Below, in pieces: positions 8,374 through 64,000 of a stretch of DNA of 64,000 nt; the first letter of the stretch is position 1; every line of letters starts with the position of its first letter. The position numbers were made by a program, and so were the translations under genes. Where the stretch lies: contig OZ223209.1 of NCBI GenBank assembly GCA_965140415.1, positions 2,432,001 through 2,496,000 on the forward strand. Reading direction: 5' to 3'. Source of the stretch: Myxococcota bacterium. Lineage in GTDB: Bacteria > Myxococcota_A > SURF-8. A model generated the notes under the pieces. It was not told where the DNA came from and searched no databases. It saw nothing but the letters and a program-made list of their open reading frames with translations.

Positions 8374-8943
8374 ATGAAAACTGCGTTCGAGGAAATCAGC
8401 GCCAAGGCGCTCAACATCCCGAAGGATTGGCGTGTCGCAAGGCGCTTGAAAGCCAGTACCTGTTCGATATCGCTGCTTGCCTTGGGAGCGACTTTCGAAT
8501 TGACCAGCCAATACGTCGAAGAGATGAAGCAAGAAATCGCAGACTGGGAAGACGGTCGGAAAGTCGGTATAGGCGTTTTGCCGGAAGGTCCGTACATTAC
8601 GATTCAGAAACAGGGCGATCGCTTGCGCTATTTGGGAACGGGATTGATCGACCCCGATATTTCCATCCTGTTCAAGAATCTCGATTCGGCGATCCTGATT
8701 TTTACCGGGATGCTGGGCGCGCCGCAAGCGGTTGCGGAAAACCGTGTCTGCACGCATGGTGAAAACTCGATGGCCATGCAGGTGACGCGCTCGATGGCCA
8801 TTGTTCAGACGTATCTTTTCCCAAGCCTGATTACCAGCCGAACGTTCAAGCGTCCTCCGATTCTGACCGGTAAACAGCTTGCAACCAAAGGGATGATCAT
8901 GGGTCTATTGACTCCCAGGCTTTTGGGACTGGCGATGAAATAA
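8374..8943 (+). CDS. Hypothetical protein with SCP2 (sterol carrier protein 2)-like lipid-binding pattern
   Basis: GPYITIQKQG..PDISILFKNLDSAILIFTG..QAVAENRVCTHGE follows the SCP2 pattern by eye. GGGGAG RBS; first gene before the Fe-ADH. Confidence 0.55.
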   Translation: MKTAFEEISAKALNIPKDWRVARRLKASTCSISLLALGATFELTSQYVEEMKQEIADWEDGRKVGIGVLPEGPYITIQKQGDRLRYLGTGLIDPDISILFKNLDSAILIFTGMLGAPQAVAENRVCTHGENSMAMQVTRSMAIVQTYLFPSLITSRTFKRPPILTGKQLATKGMIMGLLTPRLLGLAMK

Positions 8944-8994
8944 GGATGTCGAAGGTTTTAACCGACGATTTATCGAAATCGATAACGAAAGGGC

Positions 8995-10176
8995 ATGAAC
9001 ATGTTGCCGAAATATTTCGAATTTATCTGTCCCGTAAAAATTTTATCCGGGCGCAAGGCGCTTTCCAACTTGCCGTATGAGTTGAAGCAACTCAATTCAA
9101 TCCATCCCATGGTCATTACCGATAAAGGTGTGGCGCAGGTCGGATTGTTGGATAAAATCAACGCGGCGTTTGCAGATAGCGATATTGAAATCAGTGAAGT
9201 CTTCGATGATACTCCCGCCGACAGCAGCAACCGTGTGATCAACAAGGTTGCCGATCTGTATCGTGAAAAGGGTTGCGATTCGCTCGTCGCAGTCGGCGGT
9301 GGAAGCGTGCTCGATACTGCCAAAGGCGTCAATATCGTCTTGTCGGAAAAAACCGACGATCTACTCAAATTCCAGGGTGTGGATCGTATCGTGGGACCGA
9401 TGCAGCCTTTCATCGCGATTCCGACGACGGCTGGAACCGGTTCGGAAGTAACGGCGGCGGCAGTGATCTACAACGAGGAAAAAGGGGCCAAGATGGCCTT
9501 TATGAGCAACAAACTCTATCCCGATGTGGCAATCGTCGATCCGGCAATGACGGAGACCATGCCGCCTAAAATCACGGCAGCGACCGGTATGGATGCGCTG
9601 ACTCACGCCGTTGAAGCCTATTACTGCTTACAGAAAAATCCGGTTTCCGATGCCTATGCCATCGGTGCGATTCGCCTGATCAAAGAATACCTGATTCCGG
9701 CGGTGGAAGATGGCAGCAATGCGGATGCGCGGCTGGCGATGGCGAACGCGGCCTTATTGGCTGGAATCGCGTTTTCGAATTCCATGGTTGGCATGGTGCA
9801 TGCCCTGGCGCACGCTACCGGCGGTGTGGCGCATGTGCCTCATGGTGTTGCAAATAGCATTCTGCTGCCTTTCGGAATGGAATACAACATCGAGAAGATG
9901 CAACCGGTCATCGCCGAGTTGGCGGATTGGCTGGGCGAGCCGGAAGCGCATCTGGACGAGCGCCAGCGCGCCTATCTGGCGGTGGAATCGGTGCGGCGAA
10001 TGACGGAGCGCTTGCACGAACTCTGCGGTTTACCGCTGACTTTGAAAGAGGCGGGCGTGCAGGAAAGCCAGTTGGAGCAGATCGCCAAGTTGGGCATCGA
10101 CGATGGCGCGTTGACCTACAACCCGGAAGAGATGACCTACGAAGATGGTTTGACGGTATTGAAGAAAGCGTTTTAA
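8995..10176 (+). CDS. Iron-containing (family III) alcohol dehydrogenase
   Basis: GGGSVLDTAK, PTTAGTGSEVT, DALTHAVEAY, HALAH, PHG. Confidence 0.95.
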   Translation: MNMLPKYFEFICPVKILSGRKALSNLPYELKQLNSIHPMVITDKGVAQVGLLDKINAAFADSDIEISEVFDDTPADSSNRVINKVADLYREKGCDSLVAVGGGSVLDTAKGVNIVLSEKTDDLLKFQGVDRIVGPMQPFIAIPTTAGTGSEVTAAAVIYNEEKGAKMAFMSNKLYPDVAIVDPAMTETMPPKITAATGMDALTHAVEAYYCLQKNPVSDAYAIGAIRLIKEYLIPAVEDGSNADARLAMANAALLAGIAFSNSMVGMVHALAHATGGVAHVPHGVANSILLPFGMEYNIEKMQPVIAELADWLGEPEAHLDERQRAYLAVESVRRMTERLHELCGLPLTLKEAGVQESQLEQIAKLGIDDGALTYNPEEMTYEDGLTVLKKAF

Positions 10177-14452: not shown

Positions 14453-14482
14453 CAAGTATGCCTTTATCCTTCTCTTTTGCGA

Positions 14483-15031
14483 TTACTTTTCTTGACCTGA
14501 TCCTGGAGTGACAAGTTTCCATTGCTTGTCTTTGTCGGAAACGATTTCGATGGGTCGCGGCCATAAAATGCCGAAGACCGGATCGTCGTAGCGCACACCG
14601 CGTGACGCCTGCTCGTTGTAAGGAACGGAAATCTGGTAAAATACTTCGCTGAAATCTTCCAAAGTCAGAAATCCGTGCGCCAACCCCTGTGGTGCATAGA
14701 GCAGACGATTGTTTTCTGCCGTCAGTTCCGTTCCGTACCAGTGGCGATAGCTTGGCGAGTCGGGGCGCAGATCCACCAGCACGTCGAAGACCGCGCCGCG
14801 CGTGCAGCGGATCAGTTTGCATTCCGCATGGGGTTCGATTTGATAATGCATCCCACGCAGGGTTCCGGCCTTCAGGTTGAATGAGGTCGAACATTGGGCG
14901 ATTTCCGGATTCAAACCGGCCTGCTCGAATTCTTCCCTACAGTAGGTGCGAGCGAAAAAGCCGCGTGAATCGCTCTGTTCTTCCAACTCGATCAGAAAAG
15001 CTCCTGCTAGATTCGTTTTTGTGAATTTCAT
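14483..15031 (-). CDS. rfbC: NDP-4-keto-6-deoxyhexose 3,5-epimerase (RmlC/RfbC family)
   Basis: DSRGFFAR, GTLRGMHYQ, KLIRCTRGAVFDV, AHGFLTL, SDKD. Confidence 0.92.
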   Translation of the reverse strand: MKFTKTNLAGAFLIELEEQSDSRGFFARTYCREEFEQAGLNPEIAQCSTSFNLKAGTLRGMHYQIEPHAECKLIRCTRGAVFDVLVDLRPDSPSYRHWYGTELTAENNRLLYAPQGLAHGFLTLEDFSEVFYQISVPYNEQASRGVRYDDPVFGILWPRPIEIVSDKDKQWKLVTPGSGQEK

Positions 15032-16287
15032 AACTGAACTCCAGTGCCATATTCAATAATGCGAGGAGTTGGAACGGGAAGGATGAAGTGTCCTCCATTT
15101 CGTAAAAACGATTCCTGCTGCCGGATGATTTCGCTTGCAAAGTTCCAGGTCAGTAGCAGGACGTAGTCGGGATTTCTGGTCTGCAATGTTTCTGGCGGAA
15201 GTATTGGTAGAGTTTGACCGGGCATGTAAAGCCCCTGCTTGTGCGGGCTTCTATCCACAACAAAATCCAACAGGTTTTCCCCGATGCCGAAGACGTTTAG
15301 TAATGTACTTCCTTTAGCCGCCGCACCGTAGGCCGCTAGCTGCTTTCCCTTCGCTTTAAGCTCTTGCAGCAGTGAGGTGAGCGTGTCTTTCAACTCCCAG
15401 ACGCCGTCGCTAAAAGCCTTGTAGCTTTGCGGCTGATCTACTCCCCATTCCGATTCTTCCAGCAGCAGTTGACGAACGCTGCGGTCGGGAACCACGTTTT
15501 TCGCATGGCCTACAACGAGCCTGAGTGATCCGCCATGAATCGGCACCTGCTCGACGCGTAGCAGTGCCAACTCGTGCGAACGGAACAGACGTTGCAAAGC
15601 GGTTAAGGAAAAGTAGCACAGGTGTTCATGGTAAATCGTGTCGAATTCCAGCCGGTCCAGCAGCGGCTTTAAATAGGGGGCTTCGATCACGGCGATGCCA
15701 TCGGGTTTCAACAGCAAACGGAAGCCTTCAACAAAGCCATTTAAATCGGCGACATGTGCCAGTACATTGTGGGCGTGAATTACATCTGCTTTCCCTAACG
15801 TCGATGATACCTGCTCGGCGACTTCTGGATTGAAAAAGGCGACCGTTGTAGGAATGCCGTGTTGCTCGATTGCGACATTGGCGACGTTCTCCGCCGGTTC
15901 AATGCCGTGCACCGGGATATTGTGTTGCTTGTAATATTGCAGCAGGTAGCCATCGTTGCTGGCGATTTCTACGACCCGGCTACTCGTGGAAAGATTTCGT
16001 TCTTCGATGATTGCGCTGGCCAATGATTTTGCATGGGCGAGCATCGTATCGGAATAAGAGGAAAAATAGGGATAGTCTGAAAATAGCATTTCAGGTGGTA
16101 CTGTTTCGCTGATTTGTACTAAGCTACAAGCAGGGCAGAGCAGCAGGCGCAATGGATAGATCGCTTCCTGCTGTGAGAGTTCCTTTTCGCTGCGCAACGC
16201 ATTGGCTAACGGCGTTTCTCCCAAGTCCAGAATTTCAACGAGATCCCTATGGCCGCAAGCTCGGCAATGGGTGATTTCCGGACTCAT
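15028..16287 (-). CDS. NDP-hexose C3-methyltransferase (Zn-finger, SAM and C-methyltransferase domains)
   Basis: [53 protein letters not shown] overlaps with both neighbours. Confidence 0.92.
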
Positions 16288-17279
16288 GATTGCTCCTCGA
16301 AATAGCGCCGGTACCACGCAATCGTTTGCATGAGTCCTTCCTTCATTGAGAAATCCGAACTCCAGCCCAGTAACTCATGAGCTTTTTTGGCGCTGAGATA
16401 TTGTTCTTTTATTTCATGACTGGCTTGATTTTGCACGACCGCTTGCAGATTCGAATCCATCGCCTGCAAAACGGCATCCACAACTTGTAGGACCGTCATT
16501 GGCGTTTCTGTAGAGAAATTGAAGGCTTCGCCGATTAACGAACGGTTTTCGGCCAGTTTTTCCGCCAATGTCATATAGGCGCGAGCGCCATCTTCAATGT
16601 AGAAATAATCGCGAACGAAAAGACCGTCCGAGCGAACGATCGGAGAGTCTCCGCGAAGCACCGAGCGAATGGTGCCGGGGATGATCCGATTCCAGTTCAA
16701 ATCGCCGCCACCGTAGAAATTGCCGCAGCGGGTGATGGCAACCGGTAGTTCGTAGGTTTTAGCGTAACTTTGTGCAAGTAGATCCGCACAGGATTTGCTG
16801 ACGTCATAAGGGTAACGCCCGATCAGCGGTGCGTTTTCGGTGTAGGGCAATTCGGATTGGTCCCCATAGGCTTTGTCGGAAGAAGCCAGAACAATCTGCT
16901 TGACGGCAGGGCTTCTGCGGGCGGCTTCCAGCACCGTCCATGTTCCCCTAATGTTTGAATCCAGTGTGGAAATCGGATTGCGAGACGCAACCTGCACCGT
17001 GGTTTGCGCAGCCAAATGGAAAACCGTATCGATTTCGTATTCTCCAAGTGCGCGTTCCATCAATTCCTGATCTCGGATGTCCCCATAGACCGCTCGTACC
17101 CGATTAAGGTTTCCTGTTCGTAACAGATCCGCCTGGGGTACGTGATCGCGCAGCAGGCAAACTACATCCGCTTGGTGTTTGAGTAGTTCCGTTACCAACC
17201 AGCTTCCAAGTAAGCCGGTGGCGCCGGTGACGAAAACCGGGCGATCTTGCCAGAAGGGATTCAACTCCATAGTTTCCAT
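16284..17279 (-). CDS. rfbG: CDP-glucose 4,6-dehydratase-like extended SDR
   Basis: [38 protein letters not shown]; directly follows rfbF. Confidence 0.8.
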
Positions 17280-52219: not shown

Positions 52220-54154
52220 TTAGCAGGTTTCGCGACGGCTCCGGTGTATCAGGAATCCAAATAAAATGAAAACAAGTGAAAGCAAACAGGACATCCCTTG
52301 CGCTTGGTGACATCCACCTGCGCTGCCGATTTCTCCGCTGCCATCTTGTGAAATGCAACCTCGTGCCGCATCACACTGCAACCCTTCGGCTTCGCAGTCG
52401 CGACTGTCCAACCAGTTTTCATCGTATGAGCATTGCTGGAAGATCCCATTCTCGCAGCGTGTCTCTCCGGTCTCGCAGCGGATGGAAAGACTTTCCTCAT
52501 TTTCAATTTCGTCCATGTCGCCATCGGAATACTCCTCATCTGCAACCGGAAGAATAAAGTCCGAATCGCCATATTGGATCGGAAGATTGCCGTCGGGTGA
52601 CGTGTCGCCATCAGAAAGTTGTTCTACACATTGTCCCAGATTGCAGATCCAGCCTTCATCGCAGGATTCCAGTAAATTCCAAGAGCCGTTCGCGTCGCAG
52701 ATCCAAACGGAATTATCCAAACCGCATTCCCGTTCACCCTCCACACATTCAACAACGGCTTCCACATCCTGATCGCCATCTTCAGGGGAGTCCCCGTCGC
52801 CGTCAATCGGCTCATCGGTCTCGGGTAAGATGATTTCTCCCTCTGCCAGCGGTGTGTCGCTGTCTTCTTCGCCCAGCTCGCAATCCCCCTCGACAATGCG
52901 AAAGCGACTATAGAAGCTTCGGGTTCGATCTCCGGTCACTTCCACTTCCAGGTCGTGAATGCCAACCGCGAGTTCCTGTGTGTTGAAGCTGCCTCGCCAT
53001 TGTTCTGGAATGGCAGGGTGTTGCAATAAGGTTTGCCAGCTTTCGGAGTCGACCCGAAAGCGCATATTGGATGGTTCCAGCAGATCGAACAGCAGCACGC
53101 GCACCGGGGCCTGCTCGCAGGAATTAGACACTGGGGGCGCATGGGGATTGTCTTGCCACTCCGATTCTCCATCTGCCGAGAATTGAGCGGGAGCCGGGGC
53201 TGTGATTACAGCTAAAGGCCAGGGCTGCTCTGCGTTGACAACCGTTTGGCTGAGGCAGTGATTGTCCAGCGCATACACCGCCAGGTTGTTGTCCGATCCC
53301 TGACCCAGCGAATCGATTCTGAATCGGATCACGTCATCCGAGCCGAGACGGATGCCTCGGTCGTGCTCGTGACCGTGGGCATAGAACGTCGCTCCTTCTC
53401 TAATCAGCAGATCGGAGAAGGCTTCGTTGTTGTCCACATCGAGATAGTCGTGATGGCTGAAAATCATGGTCATTTCACTGCTGCCGAGCGCTTGCAGATT
53501 TTCTTCCAGTTCCAACAATTCCCAATCCGTGAAAATCGCGTTATCCCACCACCACTGTTGACCGTCGTTGGCGGAGTCCGCCGCAGCGGCAAAGCGATAG
53601 CGGCCATAAGGCATATCCAGAGCCCAATAGGGTTGCGTGGTGCGATAGGTTACACCGGAATAGGAATAGGCAAGATAGTAGTTCAATTCGCCGTCGCCGT
53701 AAGCATCGTGATTGCCTGCAAGGTCGAAATAGAAATCCGGGGTAAGTCCGGCCTGCTCCAGGTAGCCGCGATATTCCTGCCATTCTTCGACATGAGGACC
53801 GGTGCCGTAGACGACGCCATCGGTGGAGTCGGTCAGATCGCCGGTGGTGACAATGAACCAGGGATCGACGGTATCGGCAATTTCCGTAGCGACGCGATAG
53901 AGCTTGTCGCCATACGTCTGATTGAAAAACGTGGAAACGTGCGTGTCGGAAATCTGGATGAACCAGAATATATGGCTGCCATCGGCCAGATAGGCTGGAT
54001 TTTCTAGCTCGTTTTCCTGTGCCTGCGCGATATTGATGGAGAGAAATAAAAGCAGAATAGATGTAAGCACGCAGATTGGTATCCGGCTGCGTTTCGATTC
54101 GAAAACGGAAGCCGCCGTATGGCGTTTTGCTTTCTCGATTGTTTCTGCTGTCAT
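52220..54154 (-). CDS. Surface metallophosphoesterase (calcineurin-like, TMEM62-N-like) with DGD/Cys repeats and MYXO-CTERM-like anchor
   Basis: QISDTHVS, TGDLTD, GNHD, HHD, GHEH; C-terminal SAGGC followed by a hydrophobic helix and HRSRR. GGAG RBS. Confidence 0.8.
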   Translation of the reverse strand: MTAETIEKAKRHTAASVFESKRSRIPICVLTSILLLFLSINIAQAQENELENPAYLADGSHIFWFIQISDTHVSTFFNQTYGDKLYRVATEIADTVDPWFIVTTGDLTDSTDGVVYGTGPHVEEWQEYRGYLEQAGLTPDFYFDLAGNHDAYGDGELNYYLAYSYSGVTYRTTQPYWALDMPYGRYRFAAAADSANDGQQWWWDNAIFTDWELLELEENLQALGSSEMTMIFSHHDYLDVDNNEAFSDLLIREGATFYAHGHEHDRGIRLGSDDVIRFRIDSLGQGSDNNLAVYALDNHCLSQTVVNAEQPWPLAVITAPAPAQFSADGESEWQDNPHAPPVSNSCEQAPVRVLLFDLLEPSNMRFRVDSESWQTLLQHPAIPEQWRGSFNTQELAVGIHDLEVEVTGDRTRSFYSRFRIVEGDCELGEEDSDTPLAEGEIILPETDEPIDGDGDSPEDGDQDVEAVVECVEGERECGLDNSVWICDANGSWNLLESCDEGWICNLGQCVEQLSDGDTSPDGNLPIQYGDSDFILPVADEEYSDGDMDEIENEESLSIRCETGETRCENGIFQQCSYDENWLDSRDCEAEGLQCDAARGCISQDGSGEIGSAGGCHQAQGMSCLLSLVFILFGFLIHRSRRETC

Positions 54155-54182
54155 GTAAAACTCCATCGAGTGATTTGAAGCA

Positions 54183-55394
54183 TCAGGCGGAATCGGCGAC
54201 ATCCAGTACGATCTTGATCGCCTGTTCTTTCCCTTTCGATAAAAAGGCTTTGACGGCCTGCTTGTATTCGCTTACCGGGAAACGATGCGTGATGATATCC
54301 GCAGGATCAACGACTTGTTTCTTTAACAGCTCCGCCGCCACGTCGAAGGAGTTGCGTTCTTCGGTCTCCGATGCATGACAGTTGATGCCGACCAGGTTGA
54401 TCTCTTTGGCCCACACCGGCGAATAATCGATTTTCCCTGGTTGGAAGTTGATTCCGATCAAGACCAAACTGCCCCCGCCGCGAGTCCAGCGCAAGGCCTT
54501 GGTTACAGTAGAGTCGTTTCCGACGGTGTCGTAAATAACGTCGAATCCTCCGAGCAGGATTTCATTTCCGAAATAGCCTTTGATATAGCGCCCGCCGGTG
54601 ATATCTGCAAATTGGCTATAAAGCGATTTCGTTTCCATAACGGGTGTCGCCCCCAGTTTTTCCACCACGGTGGCCTGGAAACAATGGCGAGTGAGGCAGT
54701 ACACGTCCGCTTGAGGGAAGAGTCCGCGTACCGCCGCCACGGTCATCAGGCCGATGGTTCCCGCTCCAAGCACAAGCACCTTCTGGCCGGGTTGTGGATT
54801 GGCTTTGAGTGCGCCGTGGGCTGCGCTGGCAAGCGGTTCCAGTAACAGCGCCTGATCGTTCGTAAGTTCCGCCGGGATTTTGTAGGGCTGGCTTTTATGC
54901 ATGACCATCAAAGGTGAAAAACCGCCGCCGACATCACGGATGGGCAACTCTTTACTTCCCTGATTTTCACACAGCATGTAATTGCCGCGCGCGCATTGAG
55001 GGCAGGGCGGGTCGATCTCCAACTGATTGCAGGAGGGCCAGTCGATGCGCATGGCCACCCGATCGCCAACAGCGACCGTATCGACGTCGGAACCCGCCTC
55101 GATCACTTCGCCCACCAGTTCATGTCCCAGGAATTTCCGGCTGATTCCTGGAATGGCGGCGGGGTAGCACTTCGGGTCCATTTCCATGAACATGAAATGC
55201 AGATCGGTGCCGCACAATCCGCAACTGAGGTTGCGCACCTTCAGCCAGCGAGAATTTGGGATATGCGGCTCGGGAACATCGGCATACTTCAAACTGGAAA
55301 AGGGGCCAAGGGCTGCGTAACGATCGAAGACGGAGGCGACTTTCAGCGTGGCGACCTGGGACAGCTTGTTTTCGAAATACAGGGCTTTCATCAT
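54183..55394 (-). CDS. Zinc-dependent medium-chain dehydrogenase/reductase
   Basis: CGLCGTD, LGHELVG, C..CPQC..C structural Zn site, EPLA, GAGTIG. TAATG overlap with the upstream stop. Confidence 0.92.
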   Translation of the reverse strand: MMKALYFENKLSQVATLKVASVFDRYAALGPFSSLKYADVPEPHIPNSRWLKVRNLSCGLCGTDLHFMFMEMDPKCYPAAIPGISRKFLGHELVGEVIEAGSDVDTVAVGDRVAMRIDWPSCNQLEIDPPCPQCARGNYMLCENQGSKELPIRDVGGGFSPLMVMHKSQPYKIPAELTNDQALLLEPLASAAHGALKANPQPGQKVLVLGAGTIGLMTVAAVRGLFPQADVYCLTRHCFQATVVEKLGATPVMETKSLYSQFADITGGRYIKGYFGNEILLGGFDVIYDTVGNDSTVTKALRWTRGGGSLVLIGINFQPGKIDYSPVWAKEINLVGINCHASETEERNSFDVAAELLKKQVVDPADIITHRFPVSEYKQAVKAFLSKGKEQAIKIVLDVADSA

Positions 55395-56650
55395 TACGCC
55401 TCCTGGCCGCTGGACGATTCCAGGTTATCCAACGCCGTTGCAACGGCAAGAAGAAGGTCATCCGCTTCCTGCTTGCTTAGCAGAAGGCTGGGGCGGAGTA
55501 AAACCGTGTTTCTTGCTACTTTCCCCGTTTGAGCCAACACTCCGGCTATGGATAATTCCCGGCAGAAATCCGTTGCGGCTTGCTCGCTCTTTAATTGCAG
55601 AGACAATAACAAGCCTTGACCGGCAACACTTCGAAGAGTGGCCTCATGTTGCGTCGAAAGGTTCTCCAGTGCTTTTTTCAACTCAGCTCCGATAGCCGAG
55701 GCATTATCCCAGGGATGAGCTTGTTCATAGACTTTTAGGGCTTTTGTGGCGACGCGGCAGCCTAAGTCGGAACCTCCGAATGTGGAAAGGTGAATCATGG
55801 GGTGATCGTTTAAAAAAGCGTTTACACGTTGGGTCAGTACCGTCGCGCAAATAGGGAACATGCCGCCACCCAGCGCTTCTCCAACAATCAGAATATCCGG
55901 TTGAATCGCGTAGGATTCGAAAGCAAAGCGTTTGCCTGTGCGTCCGAAACCGGTCTGGGTTTCGTCGAAGATCAACAGCGCGCCGTGACGATCGCACAAT
56001 GACCGCAAGGTACTGAGATAGTTCTTATCGATCGTGCGGCAATGATTTTCCGCCTGGGTAAGTTCAAGGATCACTGCGGCGGTATTGGAGGATATCGCTT
56101 GTTTCGCTTGTTCGATGTCGTTAAACGCGATTGTTTTCGTGTTCGGGATCAGGGGGGCATAGGTGTCTTTATCCACTCGCTCAGATAGCGTCAGTGCGAA
56201 ACCGGTTTCGCCGTACCAGCCGCCGTCTACCGTGATCAGTTCCTGTCGTCCCGTGAAGCCTCGTGAAACCTTGCAGGCGCATTCCACTGGTTCGCCGCGC
56301 ATCACACTGAAGACCGAGCATTCCAGTGGGCCGGGTATGAACTCGGAAAGTGTTTGCGCAAGCATCGCCTTTTCTTTTGAGATCATCGGAAAGTTGCCCT
56401 GATCCGTCTGGGTCAAGGCGACATTCAACTCCTGCGCCAATTCCGCGTGATGGCGTCCCAGGTTGAAGGCACCGCCGGAACTGTGGCAGTCTATATAGCG
56501 TTTTCCGTTTTCATCGAAAACGAGTGAACCCTCGCGTTTGGATTCGATGATGTCCAGCCCGTTACGTTTCAACTCGGTGAGCATGGCCGGAGAAAAAAGC
56601 CGGGCGAAATCGTCTTTCAGTTGTTTTGCCGTGTTTTGTTGTTTAGACAT
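55394..56650 (-). CDS. Class-III aminotransferase-fold protein lacking the PLP lysine (subunit B)
   Basis: [11 protein letters not shown] and HLSTFGG retained; DILIVGEALGGG has Glu (GAA, 55877-55879) at the Lys position. Confidence 0.85.
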   Translation of the reverse strand: MSKQQNTAKQLKDDFARLFSPAMLTELKRNGLDIIESKREGSLVFDENGKRYIDCHSSGGAFNLGRHHAELAQELNVALTQTDQGNFPMISKEKAMLAQTLSEFIPGPLECSVFSVMRGEPVECACKVSRGFTGRQELITVDGGWYGETGFALTLSERVDKDTYAPLIPNTKTIAFNDIEQAKQAISSNTAAVILELTQAENHCRTIDKNYLSTLRSLCDRHGALLIFDETQTGFGRTGKRFAFESYAIQPDILIVGEALGGGMFPICATVLTQRVNAFLNDHPMIHLSTFGGSDLGCRVATKALKVYEQAHPWDNASAIGAELKKALENLSTQHEATLRSVAGQGLLLSLQLKSEQAATDFCRELSIAGVLAQTGKVARNTVLLRPSLLLSKQEADDLLLAVATALDNLESSSGQEA

Positions 56651-58064
56651 GACGACCTCCTTTCAATGAACCACCAACGCGTTTGACGCCGTCTTCCACC
56701 TTTCGGATAATACCGAATAACGAGGTTTGGAATTTCTCGCTGTTTAACAGATCGCGAAGCGGTTTGATGCGGGCGGCAGGTAGCGCAAGAGGAAGTAGAA
56801 TCTTCATGTCCTTGACCGCGCCTTCAATCGCTTCGATTAGAAGATCCATTTCCTGATCGTTGATGGTGATTGGAGCCATGAAGCGCATGACCTGTGGTGC
56901 ATTGCCGGAATATGCTGCAAACACGCCGTGTTTGGCCAGCGCATCGGACATCATCGGTCCCATGAATTCGTGGATGTATTCAATCCCTACCATCAGGCCG
57001 ATGCCGCGCACGTCCTTGATGATCTTGGGATTACGTTCCCGCAGACGCAGCAGCGCTTCCCGCAGCTTGTCGCCCATGCGCTGCGAATTTTCCCACAAGC
57101 GATTTTCTTCCAGGTACTCCAGCACTTTCAGGGAAACGCGACATCCCAAATCGGAGCCGCCGGTGGAGGTCGGGTGAAAGTCGGGATGAGCATCGACGAA
57201 AGCCGTCAGTTGTTCGGAATCGCGGTACAGCATCGCGGCATTGGGATAAAGCGAGCCGCCAAGCGATTTGGCGACCGTCATGATATCCGGAACGACGCCG
57301 GAATGTTCGCAGGCGAAAAGTTTGCCGGTGCGCCCGAAACCGGTTTGGATTTCGTCGAAGATCAAAATTGCACCAGTCTGGTCGCAAAGCTCGCGCAGTC
57401 CTTTCAAGTAGCCGGTTTCCCCAACAAAGATTCCGGCTTCGCCCTGCACCGGCTCTACGATAATCGCGGCGGTTTCACTGTTGACGGCTTCTTTCATTGC
57501 TTGCAGATCGTTAAAGGGAACGAAGGAAAAACCGGGCATCAGCGGTTCGCAGTAGTGCCGGTAATGCTCCTTGCCGTTGGCGCTCAACGAGAAGCCTGTA
57601 TGTCCATGGTAGGCTTTGATGGTGCTGACGATGTGACTGCGCCCGGTTGCGCCACGGGTGAGTTTGATTGCGCAATCCACCGCATCGCCACCCCCTGCGG
57701 CGAAGAGAATCCGGTTCAAGCCGTCGGGAGACATCTCGACCAGTTTTTTCGCGAAAGCAATTTTGTGCGGCGAAATCAATCCGCTAAGTCCCATGTCCAG
57801 ATCTTGCAGTGCGTCTTGCAGTGCGCCCATAATTTCAGGGTTATGCCTGGATACGTTGAAACTTCCGGCGGAAGAGAAACAGTCGAACATGCGGCGGCCT
57901 GAAATCGGATCGGTAAAGTGAACGCCAAGGCGCTCGGTTTCGAAAACATCCAGGTGCCCGGCTTTTAGATACTTGACTTGTCCTCGGTTGATATACCGTT
58001 CGAAAGTCGAGACGATACGCCGGACTTCCTCGGCATCGATGCGCTCCGGATTCGTATTGGTCAT
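56643..58064 (-). CDS. Class-III PLP aminotransferase (subunit A)
   Basis: [38 protein letters not shown] (PLP Lys), VRGIGLMVG. Overlaps the next gene by 8 bp. Confidence 0.92.
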
Positions 58065-58383
58065 GGACACTCTTCCTTCCTGCATGAGTGGAACTCAACT
58101 GCTATTATCTGCCTTCACGTTCACCGGATACAATAATTACAACTTATCCGCGTGGGTGGTAGCGATTCAATATCTGCGTCTTGTTTCGTGTTGCAAATTG
58201 GCTTCGACGTCTTAATCGTCACTGTACTCAAAAAGAAGCGAGGTTGAAAGTAGATTTTACAGCAGGGAAGGACATTTTCAGCGATTCGGAAGCTGCGTTT
58301 TGCACGTAGGCGCATTCCTGCAACAAGGCGCAAGACCAGCTCTATCGAGCTTCAGGCTATGGGAACTGTGCTGGCACTGACTC

Positions 58384-59235
58384 TCAGAATACTTCCACCG
58401 CTTCCAATGGAACGGGCGGGTAAATCTGTCCGTGGGAAGGCGGCATGGAGTTATACACCCAGTCGATATCTACCGCTCCCAGCGACAACGGCAGCGGTCC
58501 GAAGGAGCGCTGCGAGTGATACCGTCCACGCACCAGGACACTTTCCATTTTCAACGTCATTGCGAATATGGCAACCGGCGTATCCGGCTTGATGTCGCGA
58601 AGCTCGTCGCTGTAGGGGAAGCGCGTAAAGACGAGGCGGCGCGGGTCTGTCGGCTGGCATTGCAACAACGGGATGATACGCGGGTAGCCATCCGTATCGA
58701 TTGCGGCCAGAAATGCGAGTGAATCCAGTTTGGAAAGCAACTCCATGCCAAAGGCGGACAGCATCTTTTCGTCACCCTTGCGACCGGCTCCGAACTTGGA
58801 AAGTTTGGTTAAAATTGAAGCGGGAACGATGCTTTTTACCGGCAATGGTTCTTTTTCCGTGGTTTCTACCAGATCCATGTAATGCACGGTGTTGATGCCG
58901 AAATAACTGTTGTAGCGGAACATCGGCTTTTCGTTGAACATCGTGTAATCGTCGCCTTCGCGCAGCAGATGCGTCCAGGTGGCTTTGCCGCGCCAGAGTT
59001 CGCGATCGGCGGACATGATCAGAAAGCCGGTTTTGGGATTTTGCTGCACGTGTTGTTTGGATAAACCGATGCAGAACTGTCCCCAAATCACCTGGGTCGG
59101 TGTCTTTGCCTGCAAGGATGTAATCAAGGAGATGTGAGGCAATCCCTGGGGGTTGACCGTCGCCAAAAGCCCGACTTTTTCTGCCGGTTCAAAGGCTTTC
59201 ATGTCCTGTTCGGAAAACGCTTGTTTTATAGTCAC
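58384..59235 (-). CDS. Tandem pyridoxamine-5'-phosphate-oxidase-like (split barrel) protein
   Basis: Two halves: GLLATVNPQGLPHIS..HVQQNPKTG and AFLAAIDTDGYPRII..DIKPDTPVAI. GGGG RBS before GTG. Confidence 0.72.
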   Translation of the reverse strand: MTIKQAFSEQDMKAFEPAEKVGLLATVNPQGLPHISLITSLQAKTPTQVIWGQFCIGLSKQHVQQNPKTGFLIMSADRELWRGKATWTHLLREGDDYTMFNEKPMFRYNSYFGINTVHYMDLVETTEKEPLPVKSIVPASILTKLSKFGAGRKGDEKMLSAFGMELLSKLDSLAFLAAIDTDGYPRIIPLLQCQPTDPRRLVFTRFPYSDELRDIKPDTPVAIFAMTLKMESVLVRGRYHSQRSFGPLPLSLGAVDIDWVYNSMPPSHGQIYPPVPLEAVEVF

Positions 59236-59251
59236 GATGTTTCCCCTTTAG

Positions 59252-60286
59252 TTATCTGATATTGCAGGGATTGAATGATTGCGGTTGGATATCCCGCTCC
59301 TGCTCTCCTGGTTCCTCGTCCAACTGGGTCGAACCGGACCAGTGAACGCATCCTTCGTAAACTCCGGATTCTCTAGCGATCTCGGATAGTTGGTTCATCT
59401 GCTGCTTCGTCATCAGTTCACAGTTCGCAAATTGCCAGTTTCGACCGAGTCGCAGGTATTTGTCCTGGCAGAGATTATTGAAGGCGCAGAGTTCCCAGCG
59501 CGAAAGCAGACCGTTGAGTTCTTCTGCCAAAAAGCTACCGATGCCTCGGATGTTTTCGGCTGTATCGGTCGCTCCGGGGATAATCGGCGTACGCACCCAC
59601 AATGTGCCTCCATTGGATTGCAGATAATCGCGAACGTGGCGCAGGTTGTCCTGAATACGCAGATTGTCACTGCCGGTGAAGTTCTTGTGTTTTTCTGAAT
59701 CAATTTCTTTCACGTCGAACAATACCAGATCGGCATGCTTCAACAGACGATCCAGTGCTTCGGGTTGGCATTGGCCACAGGTATCGATAGCGGTATGAAT
59801 GCCTTCTTTGTGCAATCCGGCCAATAATTGCGCCGCCGCTTTCGATTGCAGTGTTACTTCACCACCGGAGAGTGTCACGCCGCCACCCGATTTTTCGAAA
59901 TAGGCGCGGTCTTTCAATAACTCATGCAGCAACTTGTCCACAGGCCAGTCCGTTCCCCATAATTCCAGGGCGGTGCTGGGGCATTCTTCCGCACAAGCGC
60001 CGCAACCTTCGCAACGTTGCCGGTCGATTTGAATACCCTGCGCTGTGGCCGATAGCGCGTTATTGGGACAGACTTCTAGGCAACTGTGACAGCCGATACA
60101 ACGGGATTCGATCCACTGTATTTGCGGGCGTGAATCGATGCTTTCAGGATTGTGGCACCAGGAACAGGCCAGGCTGCATCCTTTCAGAAAAACGGTCGTA
60201 CGGATGCCGGGACCGTCTTCGGTGCTCATACGCTGGATTTCCAACACGCGCAAGCTGGATTCGGAAACTTCGGCGGCAGAAGACAT
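59252..60286 (-). CDS. Glycyl-radical enzyme activating enzyme (radical SAM with 2x[4Fe-4S] insert)
   Basis: EDGPGIRTTVFLKGCSLACSWCHNPES; CIGCHSC..CP and CEGCGAC..CP; GGVTLSGGE. Confidence 0.96.
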   Translation of the reverse strand: MSSAAEVSESSLRVLEIQRMSTEDGPGIRTTVFLKGCSLACSWCHNPESIDSRPQIQWIESRCIGCHSCLEVCPNNALSATAQGIQIDRQRCEGCGACAEECPSTALELWGTDWPVDKLLHELLKDRAYFEKSGGGVTLSGGEVTLQSKAAAQLLAGLHKEGIHTAIDTCGQCQPEALDRLLKHADLVLFDVKEIDSEKHKNFTGSDNLRIQDNLRHVRDYLQSNGGTLWVRTPIIPGATDTAENIRGIGSFLAEELNGLLSRWELCAFNNLCQDKYLRLGRNWQFANCELMTKQQMNQLSEIARESGVYEGCVHWSGSTQLDEEPGEQERDIQPQSFNPCNIR

Positions 60287-60297
60287 CAACAACTCCC

Positions 60298-62814
60298 TTA
60301 GTAACGCTCGTGACTGATGCGGGCGATGACTTCGTCCTGCAATTCTTTTCCGACGCTGGTGAAATAGGCATTATAACCGGTGATGCGCACCAGCAAGTGC
60401 CGGTAATCCTGTGGGTGTTTCTGCGCGTCGCGCAGCATATCGGGATCGAGCATGTTGATTTGCAGCGCAGTCCCGCCATTTTCGGTGTAGCCGCGTAAAA
60501 ACGCTTTGAACTTTTCTCGATGTTCGCCATCTTTTAGCAGCGAAGGATTGAAAGTGATGGTGTGACTGGCTCCGTTTGGCAGGTTGTTGTTATAGCCGTC
60601 CCAATCGCCTTGACCACTTTCGTCTTTTCCTCCCAGAACCTTGCCGACCGAGTTCGCGTTGCTGGTCGGGCCGTTGATATCCGCGCCGTTACTGGGGCAG
60701 ATGGCGTTGGAAAGGAATTGTCCCTTGGGACGTCCATTGGGGCTGGCGGTCATCACAAAGCCGTCTCCGGCCCAATAATTCCAACTGAGCATGCCCGGAC
60801 GGAACTGTCGGTCGGTCGATTTGGTTCGCTGCCGCCAGGTGTGATCGCACCACAAATCCATAACTCGGCGGCCAAGTTCGTCCGCGTGGTCGTCGTCACG
60901 TCCGTATTTCGGCGCTTTGTTCAAAGCTTTGGCCTGTAGTACCTCATGCCCCACCCAGTTGTCTTTTAGTGCAGCAATGAGTTCTTTCATGGTGCAGGCG
61001 CGCTTCTCGTACACCAAGTATTCGATGGCAAGCAGCGAATCGACGGTCGTTGCAAACGTGACTGCTTCCAGCGTGGTAAAGCTGATTTTCGCGCCTCCCT
61101 GGGTGATGTCTTTGCCGGATTCGGCGCAGCCTTGCACCATGCAGGAGAGATAGGGCGTCGGGAAGAATTTGGCGCGGACGGATTCGGAAGCCTCGTACAC
61201 TTCCGCGCATTTTTCGATGATGTAATGGGTCTGTTTTTCGTAAGCGCGCCAGAACTGCTCGAAATTCACAAAGGAACTCGGATCGCCGGTAATTGGACCA
61301 TCCTGGGTGATCGGCGAGACGGCTTTGGTGATCGGATCAACGAAGGGCAGCAGATCCTTGCCGTTTCCCAGCGTCAATTCAACCGCTTTTAACAGGTTCA
61401 GGTTGTTGTCTACCGTGCCGGAGCGGTCGTTTCCAACCATCGTGTTTTCCAGGCAGCCTACTGGGGCGTAGTCGTGAACGTTTTCCGGTGTAATGTCATT
61501 CTTATATGCGCTGGATTTGGCCTCGCGCATCATGCCTGCCATGGAGCGCTCGTCGAAATTCAACAGAAACGGCGCACCCTGGCTGGAGGCGATCATGTCG
61601 GTGACTTTTTCCAGCAAGTCATCCGGCGAGTTGCGGTGCAGGCGGACATTGGGTTTCGGTTCGAGTATCGGTGTCATCTCGTCGATGACTTCCAATATGG
61701 CGTAGGTCAACTCGTTCGTTAAATCCTGCCCGTTTGCGCCAATGCCGGAAAGCGTGAGAAGCTGTCCGAAGCCTGCCGTAATGCCTTGATTTCCATTGCG
61801 AATCTGAGCGTCGTATGCGGTGTTGCAATGCACCCAGAAGCATTTCATGATTTCCTTGCCGAATTCGCGGTCCATCCCGGCCTCGATGGAGCGCTGCCAA
61901 TAAGGCAGCAGATACTGATCGAGACGCCCGAAAGATACCCCCGGTCCGGGATAATTCTCGTCGCTCATCACCAGCATGTGATTGATCCACAGGGCCTGTA
62001 GCGCCTCCCAGAACGTTTGCGGAGGTTCCCAGGGAACGCGCTTGAGGTTATCCGCCATCTGCACTAATTCGGCTTTGCGTGTTTTGTCTGTTTCTTTTCC
62101 TGCCAGAATATGGCAGCGTTCCGCATATTTCCCGGCCAAGTCGCGGGGCATGGTGGCCGCGGTCATCATGGCGCGTAGCTGAGCGCCCTGCGATCCTTTC
62201 TGATCGGATTCGGAAAGCGCTTCGTAGCGGGTCTGCAATTCTTCGTAAACGCCTTTCCAGCCGATTTTCAGCAGCTTTTCGTGACCTGGAATCAGGTGGC
62301 CGCTGGTTGCGCCACTGTTGCCGTAGCCATGATCGTGAAACCATTTGACTTTGGAGCGTGCCCCGCCGGGTTGCATCGCCAAACGGCGGTAGTCGGCGGC
62401 TTCCTGTTTGTTCAGGCACATCGACGTTTGGATGTTGAAACGGGCTCCGGCGATCAGATCCTTCGGTAATATTTCCTGTGGTACATAGTTGACCATGACT
62501 TCCTTGACGAACCAGGCTCGTCGTTCGACCAGCGGCAATGACCAGAAGTCATGCGACAGTTTGACCGGGCGTGCCGCCTGGCGGTAGGAACCGTTTAACG
62601 TGTCGATCAGCGGATAGACTTCCGGGACGATATAAAAGGTCATTTCCTGAAAGACCACATCCCAGTCCGTACCGGTGCCCCAGGAGGTGAACTCGTTGTT
62701 CCAGGCGCGTTGCGCACCTTGGAAGTAATAGTCCCGAAGCCATTGAATGCGCTGGGACAAGGCCTTGGGTTCTTTTAACTGAGGTCGCGTAGAGGGTGTG
62801 GTTGCAACGCTCAT
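60298..62814 (-). CDS. Glycyl radical enzyme of unassigned class
   Basis: SFGRLDQYL, Cys loop APVGCLE (Cys codon 61453-61455), ASPNGR, Gly loop LLVRITGYNAYF (Gly codon 60376-60378); adjacent activase. Confidence 0.95.
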   Translation of the reverse strand: MSVATTPSTRPQLKEPKALSQRIQWLRDYYFQGAQRAWNNEFTSWGTGTDWDVVFQEMTFYIVPEVYPLIDTLNGSYRQAARPVKLSHDFWSLPLVERRAWFVKEVMVNYVPQEILPKDLIAGARFNIQTSMCLNKQEAADYRRLAMQPGGARSKVKWFHDHGYGNSGATSGHLIPGHEKLLKIGWKGVYEELQTRYEALSESDQKGSQGAQLRAMMTAATMPRDLAGKYAERCHILAGKETDKTRKAELVQMADNLKRVPWEPPQTFWEALQALWINHMLVMSDENYPGPGVSFGRLDQYLLPYWQRSIEAGMDREFGKEIMKCFWVHCNTAYDAQIRNGNQGITAGFGQLLTLSGIGANGQDLTNELTYAILEVIDEMTPILEPKPNVRLHRNSPDDLLEKVTDMIASSQGAPFLLNFDERSMAGMMREAKSSAYKNDITPENVHDYAPVGCLENTMVGNDRSGTVDNNLNLLKAVELTLGNGKDLLPFVDPITKAVSPITQDGPITGDPSSFVNFEQFWRAYEKQTHYIIEKCAEVYEASESVRAKFFPTPYLSCMVQGCAESGKDITQGGAKISFTTLEAVTFATTVDSLLAIEYLVYEKRACTMKELIAALKDNWVGHEVLQAKALNKAPKYGRDDDHADELGRRVMDLWCDHTWRQRTKSTDRQFRPGMLSWNYWAGDGFVMTASPNGRPKGQFLSNAICPSNGADINGPTSNANSVGKVLGGKDESGQGDWDGYNNNLPNGASHTITFNPSLLKDGEHREKFKAFLRGYTENGGTALQINMLDPDMLRDAQKHPQDYRHLLVRITGYNAYFTSVGKELQDEVIARISHERY

Positions 62815-63560
62815 GATTCACTCCTTGATGGTTGGTTGGACCGGATCGCAAGATTCAAATGCCGTTCGCCGTGATCGAGCAGACGCGTCATGACGGCGGT
62901 GGCTTTTGCCGCATCGCCCGCTTCGACGGCAAGCAGCAATTCATTATGAAACGATAAGACTTCGTCAATGCGAAGGCTGGGGCTTTGGTAAAACACTTCG
63001 GTGAGATTCAAGGTCAATGCTTTGAATGAATTCAATAAGAGCGGATAGATGGCGTTGTTACTTGCCATGGCGAGTTGATGGTGAAACGAGAAATCAAGCT
63101 CGCATCGCTTTGTCAATTCATCCGTGCTTAATGCCTCTTCCTGCTTCAAGATGCTTTGAAGGGTTTCAAGTTGCTCTTTGGAGCGCTCTAAGCAAGCCAG
63201 CCGGGCGGTTTCCATTTCGATCAGTTTGCGCATGGCCAGAGTGCTTTGAAGCAGGTGAGGTTCCATTGCCGGGCTGCGATAGTTGATCAGCGATTCCAGT
63301 AGCGCCAATGAGCCGCTCTGGCGATAATCGGCAACGACCGCGCCGTGTCTGGGTCGAATGATGACAAGCCCCTTGTACGCAAGATCCACCAGACCTTCAT
63401 GAACGACGGGCCGACTGACTCCGAGTTGGAACGCCAATTCACGCTCGGAAGGCAGGCGCTCGCCAATCGCCAGTTCGCCGGAAAGGATCAGGCTTTCCAA
63501 TTGAGAGATAAACGTTTCTTTGAGATTATCGCTTTTAATTGGTGCAAGTTGTGGTTTCAC
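62811..63560 (-). CDS. GntR/FadR-family transcriptional regulator
   Basis: GERLPSERELAFQLGVSRPVVHEGL wHTH; FCD motif D..FH..LAMASNN. GGGAG RBS before GTG; ATGA overlap with the GRE. Confidence 0.94.
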   Translation of the reverse strand: MKPQLAPIKSDNLKETFISQLESLILSGELAIGERLPSERELAFQLGVSRPVVHEGLVDLAYKGLVIIRPRHGAVVADYRQSGSLALLESLINYRSPAMEPHLLQSTLAMRKLIEMETARLACLERSKEQLETLQSILKQEEALSTDELTKRCELDFSFHHQLAMASNNAIYPLLLNSFKALTLNLTEVFYQSPSLRIDEVLSFHNELLLAVEAGDAAKATAVMTRLLDHGERHLNLAIRSNQPSRSES

Positions 63561-63578
63561 GAAAACGCTCCCACGTTC

Positions 63579-63595
63579 TGGTGGTATTACCACCA
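63579..63595. promoter_or_regulatory. Predicted FadR-type operator
   Basis: Perfect palindrome TGGTGGTA-T-TACCACCA containing the TGGT-N3-ACCA core. Confidence 0.72.
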
Positions 63596-63598
63596 CAA

Positions 63599-63628
63599 AA
63601 TATAAAACCTTCCGCTACTGATTGTCAA
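63599..63628 (-). promoter_or_regulatory. Sigma70-type promoter of the GntR-GRE operon
   Basis: TTGACA-N18-TATATT on the minus strand, immediately upstream of the palindrome. Confidence 0.62.
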
Positions 63629-64000
63629 GTGTAAAAGGAAGTATTGGAATAAACTTTCCAGATCGGGAATTCGAGCCGATTTGCAGGTCTTTTCGACTTT
63701 CCGACCGGTTAAAATTTAAATCGGGCAATCAATGTCAACTGACCGGTGCGCATTTTAAAAAGTGCCGCCAGTTCGTGTAAAGTCGGGGTGTCACAAGTTG
63801 GCAATTCCAGAAGCTATTACACTAAGTGGCACAAAGAGCACCAAAACCACACTAAATGACCGGAGATGAGCAGTAGGATCTTGGCTTGATGCATATGAAA
63901 TGATCCACAGTTGGCCGGTTTGCGCATTTGCTCGACAATCGAGCCGATTCCGACGTTTTTTACTGTGTGTCACCGGTTGGATGTGGATGGTTGTGGAATA

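Follow-up and report, generated by a model that had tools for sequence, protein, structure and literature searches.

We describe a four-gene cassette in a 64,000-nucleotide stretch of the genome of a Myxococcota bacterium (GTDB lineage SURF-8; GenBank assembly GCA_965140415.1, contig OZ223209.1, positions 2,432,001 to 2,496,000; hereafter the window). The cassette encodes a GntR/FCD regulator, a glycyl radical enzyme (GRE), a radical S-adenosylmethionine (SAM) activase and a tandem split-barrel protein. Our sequence comparisons support the view that the GRE belongs to no characterised class among those sampled and, on balance, lean toward a radical C-O-cleaving eliminase or isomerase that would act on a neutral polyol, with a probable flavin-type partner. 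The GRE, the activase and the split-barrel protein constitute a constant trio across phyla, within a four-gene cassette that we read as autonomous and self-repressed.

Results

A glycyl radical enzyme of unassigned class

The four genes lie co-directionally on the minus strand at 58384-63628 of the window, in the order regulator, GRE, activase, split-barrel protein (ORF, open reading frame; RBS, ribosome-binding site):

63599-63628, minus strand: candidate sigma-70-like promoter, with -35 TTGACA at 63628-63623, an 18-nt spacer and -10 TATATT at 63604-63599
63579-63595, no strand: putative operator TGGTGGTAATACCACCA, a perfect 8-1-8 palindrome of 17 bp that begins 4 nt past the -10
62811-63560 (longest ORF 62811-63596), minus strand: GntR/FCD regulator, from Pfam domains, its start from the RBS and homologue lengths
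60298-62814, minus strand: GRE, 838 aa, with VGC454-L-E456, RITG813Y and the beta1 His173
59252-60286 (ORF 59252-60292), minus strand: radical-SAM activase of type TIGR02494, 344 aa from ATG 60286
58384-59235, minus strand: tandem split-barrel (PNPOx / FMN-binding-protein-like) partner, 283 aa, from PNPOx_N and a structure model

An earlier, sequence-only reading of this DNA had listed a promoter, an operator, a GntR/FadR gene, an 838-aa GRE, a ferredoxin-containing activase and a PNPOx-fold gene, and all of these were found again from ORFs, domains and sequence, as were the ATGA overlap and the 11-16 bp gaps that it gave for the junctions. The TGA of the GntR gene and the ATG of the GRE gene overlap as ATGA, with AAGGAG just ahead; 11 nt separate the GRE TAA from the activase ATG at 60286, which has the RBS GGGAG; and 16 nt separate the activase TAA from the GTG of the partner gene. 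Each gene start has a Shine-Dalgarno-like GGGAG or AGGGG.

The GRE contains both domains of its superfamily, PFL-like (PF02901, 405.7 bits) and Gly_radical (PF01228, 75.8 bits). The GCLE and RITGY loops are intact, as had been stated, with C454, E456 and G813 located in them. In 38 aligned sequences, C454, E456, G813 and H173 are invariant, as are the R, G and Y of RITG813Y, while the Trp-rich N-terminus and the NDRSGTVDNN segment, which the sequence-only reading had singled out, are present and nearly invariant. The Cys-x-Glu (CXE) loop is thus of the eliminase type that had been proposed. A June 2026 review (PMC13450708), in the sections drawn on here, counts all characterised CXE enzymes among the 1,2-eliminases and isomerases and describes their Glu as hydrogen-bonded to a hydroxyl of the substrate.

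The GRE fell under every NCBIfam cut-off. It scored 419.4 bits against 678.2 with the PFL2 / glycerol dehydratase (GD) subfamily model TIGR01774 (PFL2-3), 374.9 against 1100 with the HypD equivalog, 367 and 353.9 against 1000 with HpfG and HpsG, 317.9 against 1050 with CutC, 243 against 1100 with IAD, 178.6 against 1150 with HPAD, and 67.2 against 994 with the pyruvate formate-lyase (PFL) model TIGR01255, the loop reading G-C-L-E with no Cys-Cys. When the HypD model was run over 121 Bacillota genomes, true HypD scored at least 1160 bits in 18 genomes and stood apart from other GREs; a cassette-family member scored 379.9 bits, near the bottom. A comparison of the GRE with all PDB sequences (HMMER alignment; PD, 1,2-propanediol dehydratase) gave these E-values:

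HypD, 8.9e-92 (best PDB match, residues 171-833 only)
A. fulgidus GRE 2f3o, 2.1e-84
CutC, about 1e-84 to 1e-73
IseG, 1.5e-77
GD, 2.1e-77
PD (9rco), 2.3e-76
IslA, 7.9e-73
HpsG, 5e-72
YbiW, 1.7e-71
PflD, 4.2e-71
HplG, 4.8e-67
MASS, 4.1e-53
BSS, 4.7e-50
HPAD, 1e-34
PFL (PflB), 8.6e-11 (Gly domain only)

The AlphaFold model of the GRE (pLDDT 82.5) matched solved GREs with TM 0.70-0.77 at 20-25% identity (Foldseek). Its N-terminal 170 residues are not alignable by sequence; structural alignments still cover almost the entire chain.

A quick maximum-likelihood tree was built from 28 sequences: 13 family members including the window GRE; equivalog-level HypD, CutC (two), HpsG and HPAD; E. coli YbiW, PflD and PflB; the two other GREs of the same genome; and a second GRE from locus L016. 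The tree held no GD, PD, IslA, HpfG, IAD, PhdB or BSS, and its PflB root is a long-branch join. The family formed a clade with an SH-aLRT of 99 and a stem of 2.23 substitutions per column, and the group of all other PFL2-type enzymes excluded it (SH-aLRT 90). The sequence-only reading had left the class of the GRE unassigned and had proposed a tree of this kind; with HypD, CutC, HpsG, HPAD and PFL as references, the clade of its own agrees with the scores below cut-off and the 20-25% identity. A literature search on the clade, over titles and the starts of abstracts, turned up no paper on it. A paper on a benzene cluster (PMC13101534) appeared from its accessible part to be unrelated to the cassette and was set aside.

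The same genome encodes two further GREs that lie below every NCBIfam equivalog cut-off, one of 831 aa (G000:C1:1768600-1771100; L055:1483-3978) and one of 870 aa (G000:C1:1400700-1404840; L056) with its own activase and a TetR/RefZ-like gene. It thus contains three uncharacterised GREs.

Residues mapped to the active site

The mapping of residues rests on sequence alignment, because model confidence is lowest in the active-site loops. His173 aligns with HypD His160 in both the HMMER and the MAFFT alignments, and YbiW, PflD and three uncharacterised GREs have His in the same beta1 column (MAFFT). We take GD His164 to stand at this same beta1 position. In section 5.6 of the part of PMC13450708 drawn on, GD His164 is assigned the protonation of the leaving hydroxyl, and in the part used of PMC8473560 the beta1 "common site" is IslA-Gln193 / CutC-Asp216 / HypD-His160. 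The substrate contacts of HypD, as listed in the portion of PMC7077986 consulted, map as follows:

HypD Asp278: family-specific YPGPG insertion (Pro/Gly) in the GRE
HypD Ser334: Gln343
HypD Asp339: Gly348
HypD Phe340: Phe349 (kept)
HypD Tyr450: Asn471
HypD Thr645: Trp678

The five residues that bind hydroxyproline in HypD (Asp278, Ser334, Asp339, Tyr450 and Thr645) are therefore all replaced. HpsG Arg183/Gln187/Arg672, the sulfonate anchors named in section 5.6.3 of the same excerpted review (PMC13450708), align with Ala169/His173/Gly674, so that the GRE has no Arg at the sulfonate-binding sites (A169, G674) and lacks this mark of a C-S lyase. Thr467 aligns with CutC Thr502 (MAFFT). The mapped pocket positions are Gly/Pro, Gln343, Phe349, Asn471, Leu676, Trp678 and Tyr680. 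As predicted from these alignments, the pocket is aromatic and amide-rich with no obvious charged anchor and would therefore suit a neutral, hydroxyl-bearing substrate whose leaving group is an oxygen. The substrate is most likely neutral and polyol-like.

Conservation of the trio

A conservation scan with one genome per species gave 49 loci, all in metagenome-assembled genomes (MAGs), that encode a GRE 65-75% identical to that of the window. They come from Thermodesulfobacteriota, Chloroflexota/Anaerolineae, Spirochaetota/Leptospirales and Myxococcota and from one MAG labelled Firmicutes. Among loci with enough flanking DNA, the activase gene follows the GRE gene in 42 of 42 and the split-barrel gene follows the activase gene in 39 of 39; 32 of 41 have the GntR gene ahead of the GRE gene. 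No fewer than 119 additional clusters formed at 90% identity share 71-75% identity with the window GRE. Database names for the family are "pyruvate formate lyase family protein" and "formate C-acetyltransferase"; the family is unusually conserved and routinely mislabelled as PFL.

The partner gene occurs in 11 of 41 related genomes, our own counted; aside from it, in 5/5 of the same family, 3/4 further ones of the same order and 2/31 of the rest of the phylum. GRE, activase and partner are intact in all five relatives that were fetched with about 10 kb of flanking DNA, and the GntR gene is present in three of them. These relatives support vertical inheritance of the cassette within the family and order.

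One same-order copy of the partner gene is broken by an internal TGA (G282:C4:39122-39872). In two Chloroflexia MAGs, cassette genes are split into at least two tblastn pieces each: GRE, activase and partner in L043, activase and partner in L019. These breaks are either gene decay or indel errors of long reads. In a Deltaproteobacteria MAG (L016), a second GRE of 824 aa without its own activase lies directly after the cassette (14461-16935); it is 29-30% identical to the family GRE and scores 612 bits against 678 with PFL2-3. A DUF6463 protein of about 133-140 aa is encoded directly after the partner gene in L022, L023 and L026 (Anaerolineales).

The activase and the split-barrel partner

The activase matches TIGR02494 with 319.8 bits against a cut-off of 174 and lies below all equivalog cut-offs. 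It carries a CX3CX2C motif and two ferredoxin-type CX2CX2CX3C motifs, and its cysteines, including C37, C41 and C44, are invariant in 35 sequences.

The split-barrel partner is the most unusual feature of the cassette. It matches PNPOx_N (PF01243) with 36.9 bits against 28.1, in the N-terminal half only, and no NCBIfam model; the 2927 database matches of its family are all unnamed or generically named, and the ESM Atlas gave unnamed or PNPOx_N clusters only. By sequence, the PDB contained nothing significant (best E 0.12). The predicted structure (pLDDT 90.3, pTM 0.88) consists of two split beta-barrels. Residues 6-130 superpose on small split-barrel proteins that bind heme, FMN or F420, with Z 12-14.8 and an rmsd of 2.6-3.2 A over 113-125 residues; the matches are HupZ, the COG3576 protein 2htd, Swol_0183, MSMEG_3380 and the D. 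vulgaris FMN-binding protein. This structure search hardly covered the second half. One half can be aligned with the other (hhalign probability 83%, E 8.8e-6), which indicates an internal duplication. The tandem PNPOx fold of the sequence-only reading thus stands, given the two barrels of the model and the alignable halves.

Compared with the D. vulgaris FMN-binding protein, 2htd, MSMEG_3380, HupZ and PhdC, on which its N-terminal half superposes at 9-17% identity, the partner differs in having two barrels in one chain (a pseudo-dimer) and in being always encoded after a GRE activase. The invariant G57-x-S59-K60 (GxSK) stands at a helix start in the first barrel, with no counterpart in the second; this motif may bind the flavin phosphate, and the modelled protein probably binds one flavin-type cofactor.

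The sequence-only reading had missed that the split-barrel protein is a constant, family-specific partner (39/39 loci). Its gene is single-copy and within the cassette in the 4 genomes checked, and the other GRE-activase pair of the own genome has no split-barrel gene. Fused forms were not found among proteins of 497-2000 aa, which is weak evidence. A complex prediction for activase and partner, both entered as alignments, gave a score of 0.00 and a mark of 0.32, which speaks neither for nor against binding. The portions drawn on of PMC13450708 (sections 5.6, 5.7, 4.3 and 7) describe no GRE with such a partner, and a literature search combining GRE with split barrel, PNPOx or pyridoxamine gave none with "glycyl radical enzyme" among the matches listed.

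Neighbouring genes as hints to the substrate

Glycerol kinase equivalogs (cut-off 590 bits) adjoin the GRE gene in MAGs of two phyla. In L015, a Deltaproteobacteria MAG, GlpK (677.5 bits, 8485-9963) is encoded 38 bp upstream on the same strand, in the place of the GntR gene. In L029, a Chloroflexi MAG, GlpK (718.3 bits, 1014-2516) is divergent, and a lysophospholipase-like alpha/beta hydrolase gene lies between it and the GRE gene. By our rough estimate, a single-copy glpK would lie no more than two genes away from a given locus in about one case per thousand, so that two independent occurrences in a few dozen lineages would be unlikely to arise by chance. Near the cassette of L022 are a second GntR gene, an FAD-linked oxidase, an FGGY kinase and a DAO-family protein that is most like glycerol-3-phosphate dehydrogenases/oxidases, with 235 bits where the cut-off is 360. 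The MAG labelled Firmicutes (L040) has Pyr_redox_2, DUF1667 and FGGY kinase neighbours; L009 is a second record with cassette coordinates equal to those of L040. Among the Anaerolineae, GH36 occurs in L033 and GH3 in L048, as well as in L031 and L041 by BLAST clustering only, and Chloroflexia loci have a neighbouring GPH-family sugar transporter. The context is variable but not random. Glycerol, or a compound that contains or derives from it, is the leading substrate candidate, a choice we hold tentatively.

Regulation of the cassette

The regulator has an N-terminal winged helix (GntR, PF00392, 60.1 bits) and a C-terminal FCD domain (PF07729, 66.3 bits; FadR_C, 60 bits), which places it in the FadR/FCD subfamily by domains; it lies below every NCBIfam equivalog cut-off. 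Its start is more likely GTG 63560, predicted to give about 249 aa, because the RBS GGGAG stands ahead of it and the length is like that of homologues; the longest-ORF start, GTG 63596, falls inside the operator. TTGACA/TATATT agrees with the promoter consensus in 11 of 12 positions and is the top promoter-like site within 57900-64000, a consensus match that does not prove function. Among the sequencing runs listed, three of DNA type, all from one study, contain the stretch, and none of RNA type does. With as many as 3 mismatches allowed, the palindrome TGGTGGTAATACCACCA has a single match in the window, where chance would give 0.02.

Of the 32 loci with the GntR gene, 30 have the operator core TGGTWWWACCA ahead of the cassette, as against none of the 9 without it, and the palindrome is therefore tied to the regulator. 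The self-regulated operon that the sequence-only reading had proposed accords with this conservation of the operator across phyla. In the own 5.98-Mb genome there is one perfect site only; at up to 3 mismatches, 22 sites were found against 16 for a reversed-pattern control, and the three best sites other than the cognate one, with 1-2 mismatches, are all within long ORFs, so that this regulon search gave no second target. Judged by the single perfect site, the intragenic position of the next-best ones and a count near that of the control, the regulator seems to control its own operon alone. The GntR/FCD protein would bind the palindrome overlapping the promoter and let go when an effector, substrate or product, is present.

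The FadR/FCD repressors NanR, FadR, LldR, GlcC and PdhR have the same winged helix and FCD domain, and their operators are likewise palindromes that overlap the promoter, with TGGT-N3-ACCA as the core; the cassette regulator is predicted to bind its own. The cassette regulator differs from them in a regulon apparently limited to its own operon, and it scored at most 95 bits against their cut-offs of 189-330 bits; none of the 23 matched models (cut-offs 120-650 bits) was reached. Two database entries of 911 aa (P0051 and P0087) have a FadR_C domain ahead of the GRE domains; they most likely reflect a gene prediction begun in the overlapping GntR gene and carried on into the GRE gene, and no true fusions.

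Genes outside the unit

Four tightly coupled minus-strand genes (52220-58085, overlaps of 1-20 nt) start 298 bp downstream of the cassette; the sequence-only reading was silent on this aminotransferase-ADH-phosphoesterase operon:

56643-58085, minus strand: class-III aminotransferase
55394-56650, minus strand: class-III aminotransferase (best matches of the pair: putrescine aminotransferase and PigE-like, below cut-off)
54183-55394, minus strand: threonine-dehydrogenase-like zinc alcohol dehydrogenase (ADH), from a domain match
52220-54202, minus strand: secreted metallophosphoesterase, 660 aa, with Cys-rich C-terminal repeats

These genes have a counterpart in 0 of the 49 loci and 0 of the 5 close relatives, and a link of the aminotransferases and ADH to the cassette, by analogy with taurine to isethionate, was rejected on this count.

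No Pfam family occurred in more than 7 of 103 cassette-flanking genes, and each of the five close relatives has its own, unrelated neighbours of the cassette. A search of the own genome (93.7% complete) yielded no BMC shell gene; no small-subunit-like gene recurs across the 49 loci, and no transporter, proC, aldehyde- or ketone-processing gene is conserved with the cassette in them. The sequence-only reading had noted that shell, small-subunit, proC and transporter genes are missing, and the flank tally and the shell search bear this out for the conserved unit; the neighbourhood comparison that it had suggested leaves the trio constant and no further conserved neighbour.

An MFS transporter gene lies about 3.5 kb beyond the end of the window, in another operon, past a gene that points the other way. 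In L082 (G000:C1:2495400-2507400), past a divergent MazG/PRA-PH-like gene, the minus strand encodes an SDR, a TPP-dependent enzyme, the MFS transporter and an S15/CocE-type hydrolase; this operon was not seen beside the cassette in other loci.

Discussion

Our results lean toward a GRE that would cleave a C-O bond of a neutral polyol by radical elimination or isomerisation. In the mechanism that we propose, the activase would use S-adenosylmethionine and a reduced [4Fe-4S] cluster to put a radical on Gly813, from which it would move to Cys454. Cys454 would take an H atom from the hydroxyl-bearing carbon of the substrate, Glu456 would deprotonate that hydroxyl, and His173 would protonate the neighbouring oxygen leaving group. 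The outcome would be C-O cleavage, as a dehydration or as an ether or ring opening. The partner may be needed to carry the product through a further redox or isomerisation step, for electron supply or for protection of the radical system. A new reaction, as the sequence-only reading had proposed, is possible; a variant of the known diol or glycerol dehydration is possible as well, because glycerol-kinase and glycerol-3-phosphate-type neighbours recur.

According to section 5.7 of the excerpted review, the GRE isomerases cleave a C-O (ether) bond beside a hydroxylated carbon (PMC13450708). YbiW, PflD (1,5-anhydro-hexitol-6-phosphate ring opening) and HplG have the CXE motif, the same-column beta1 His and sugar-type gene neighbourhoods, as the cassette does. 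They differ from it in that they are 21-24% identical and branch with other PFL2-type enzymes, apart from the cassette clade; YbiW and PflD adjoin PTS, aldolase and phosphatase genes and have no split-barrel partner.

Several observations weigh against a C-O-cleaving enzyme with a flavin-type partner. The active-site loops (338-342, 455-463 and 679-700) have pLDDT values below 50 in the GRE model, and MAFFT misplaces CutC in the beta1 loop. The pocket is unlike that of HypD at 6 of 7 mapped positions, the residue comparison having been made with HypD and not with GD or PD, and the nearly invariant Asp463, Arg464 and Asp469 that follow closely on the Cys loop could hold a charged group. That the partner binds flavin is deduced from its fold, and the best structural matches (HupZ) bind heme. 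Glycerol-type neighbours occur in 4 of the 49 loci only (5 if L009 is counted), whereas S1 sulfatases adjoin the cassette in 5 loci of two lineages, CrtI-family flavoproteins lie near it in 6 loci, and a geranylgeranyl-reductase-like gene overlaps the partner stop codon in one locus (L027). The lack of any conserved enzyme that processes an aldehyde or ketone would be unusual in a dehydratase pathway.

The role of the partner may be read in other ways. It could be a dedicated low-potential, flavoredoxin-like electron donor for the activase, leaving the chemistry to the GRE alone. The likeness of its N-terminal half to the small D. vulgaris FMN-binding protein (Z 12.2) agrees with this, as does the position of its gene after the activase gene, overlapping it in L027, L018 and L014, which also fits similar low expression. 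We nevertheless regard such a donor as doubtful, since other GRE cassettes with the same activase type need no such gene, the own genome's other GRE-activase pair is without it, the protein goes with this GRE clade only, as far as the loci seen show, and, as weak evidence, no fused forms were found. Alternatively, the GRE and its partner could be an obligate two-component system with a new type of GRE reaction that joins radical C-O cleavage to a flavin-dependent step, for example a regiochemically new glycerol conversion or the opening of glyceryl ethers or glycosides without oxygen. This would account for the joint inheritance of the pair across bacterial phyla with no other pathway gene alongside. 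We consider this unlikely.

If the GRE were a divergent B12-independent GD or PD, it would yield 3-hydroxypropanal or propanal. It resembles GD (1r8w), PD (5i2g, 9rco) and HypD (6vxc) in its fold (TM 0.73-0.76, GD and PD being among the best matches with 0.74-0.76), its Cys-x-Glu and Gly loops, a His173 that corresponds to HypD His160 and a ferredoxin-containing activase of the TIGR02494 type, and glycerol kinase genes adjoin it in two phyla. Its identity to these enzymes is, however, 22-25% (22-24% to 1r8w, 5i2g and 9rco), it carries insertions in the YPGPG loop and past the Cys loop, its PFL2-3 score is 419 against 678, and it is no closer to GD or PD (2.1e-77 and 2.3e-76) than to HypD (8.9e-92). 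It stands in a separate long-stemmed clade, although the tree held no GD or PD sequence. The cassette also departs from the GD, PD and HypD systems in its dedicated GntR regulator and its obligate split-barrel partner, which the review sections consulted do not describe for GD and PD (PMC13450708), and in having no downstream reductase, aldehyde dehydrogenase or microcompartment: 1,3-propanediol dehydrogenase and aldehyde dehydrogenase are not conserved, and no BMC shell gene turned up in the genome (93.7% complete). A GD or PD is thus improbable.

Cleavage of a C-N or C-S bond, in an amino alcohol or hydroxy-sulfonate, appears quite improbable. The CXE motif and overall fold are shared with CutC, IslA/IseG and HpsG, Thr467 aligns with CutC Thr502, sulfatases adjoin the cassette in 5 loci, and two aminotransferases and an ADH are encoded downstream in the window. 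Equivalog scores are nevertheless about a third of the cut-offs (CutC, 318 against 1050 bits), the sulfonate-binding Arg/Gln/Arg reads A169/H173/G674, the aminotransferase and ADH genes are missing from 49/49 other loci and 5/5 close relatives, and no sulfite reductase or amine-handling gene is conserved. An X-succinate synthase (hydrocarbon-activating) or PFL, which automatic source names and some environmental genome papers would have it be and which occurrence in Smithella/Syntrophaceae and in a MAG labelled Desulfosudis oleivorans might recall, is hardly credible, given Cys-x-Glu instead of Cys-Cys, the PFL values (TIGR01255 67 against 994; PflB 8.6e-11), the greater distance to BSS and MASS (4.7e-50 and 4.1e-53) than to eliminases and a cassette without small subunit genes.

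The reactions of GREs are among the hardest that proceed without oxygen, and with each new class came a new route in the anaerobic cycling of carbon, nitrogen or sulfur. The clade described here is abundant, and its substrate would fill a gap in our understanding of how anaerobes of sediments, digesters and the subsurface use what are probably glycerol-type compounds. The split-barrel partner could add a new accessory-protein principle to the GRE superfamily.

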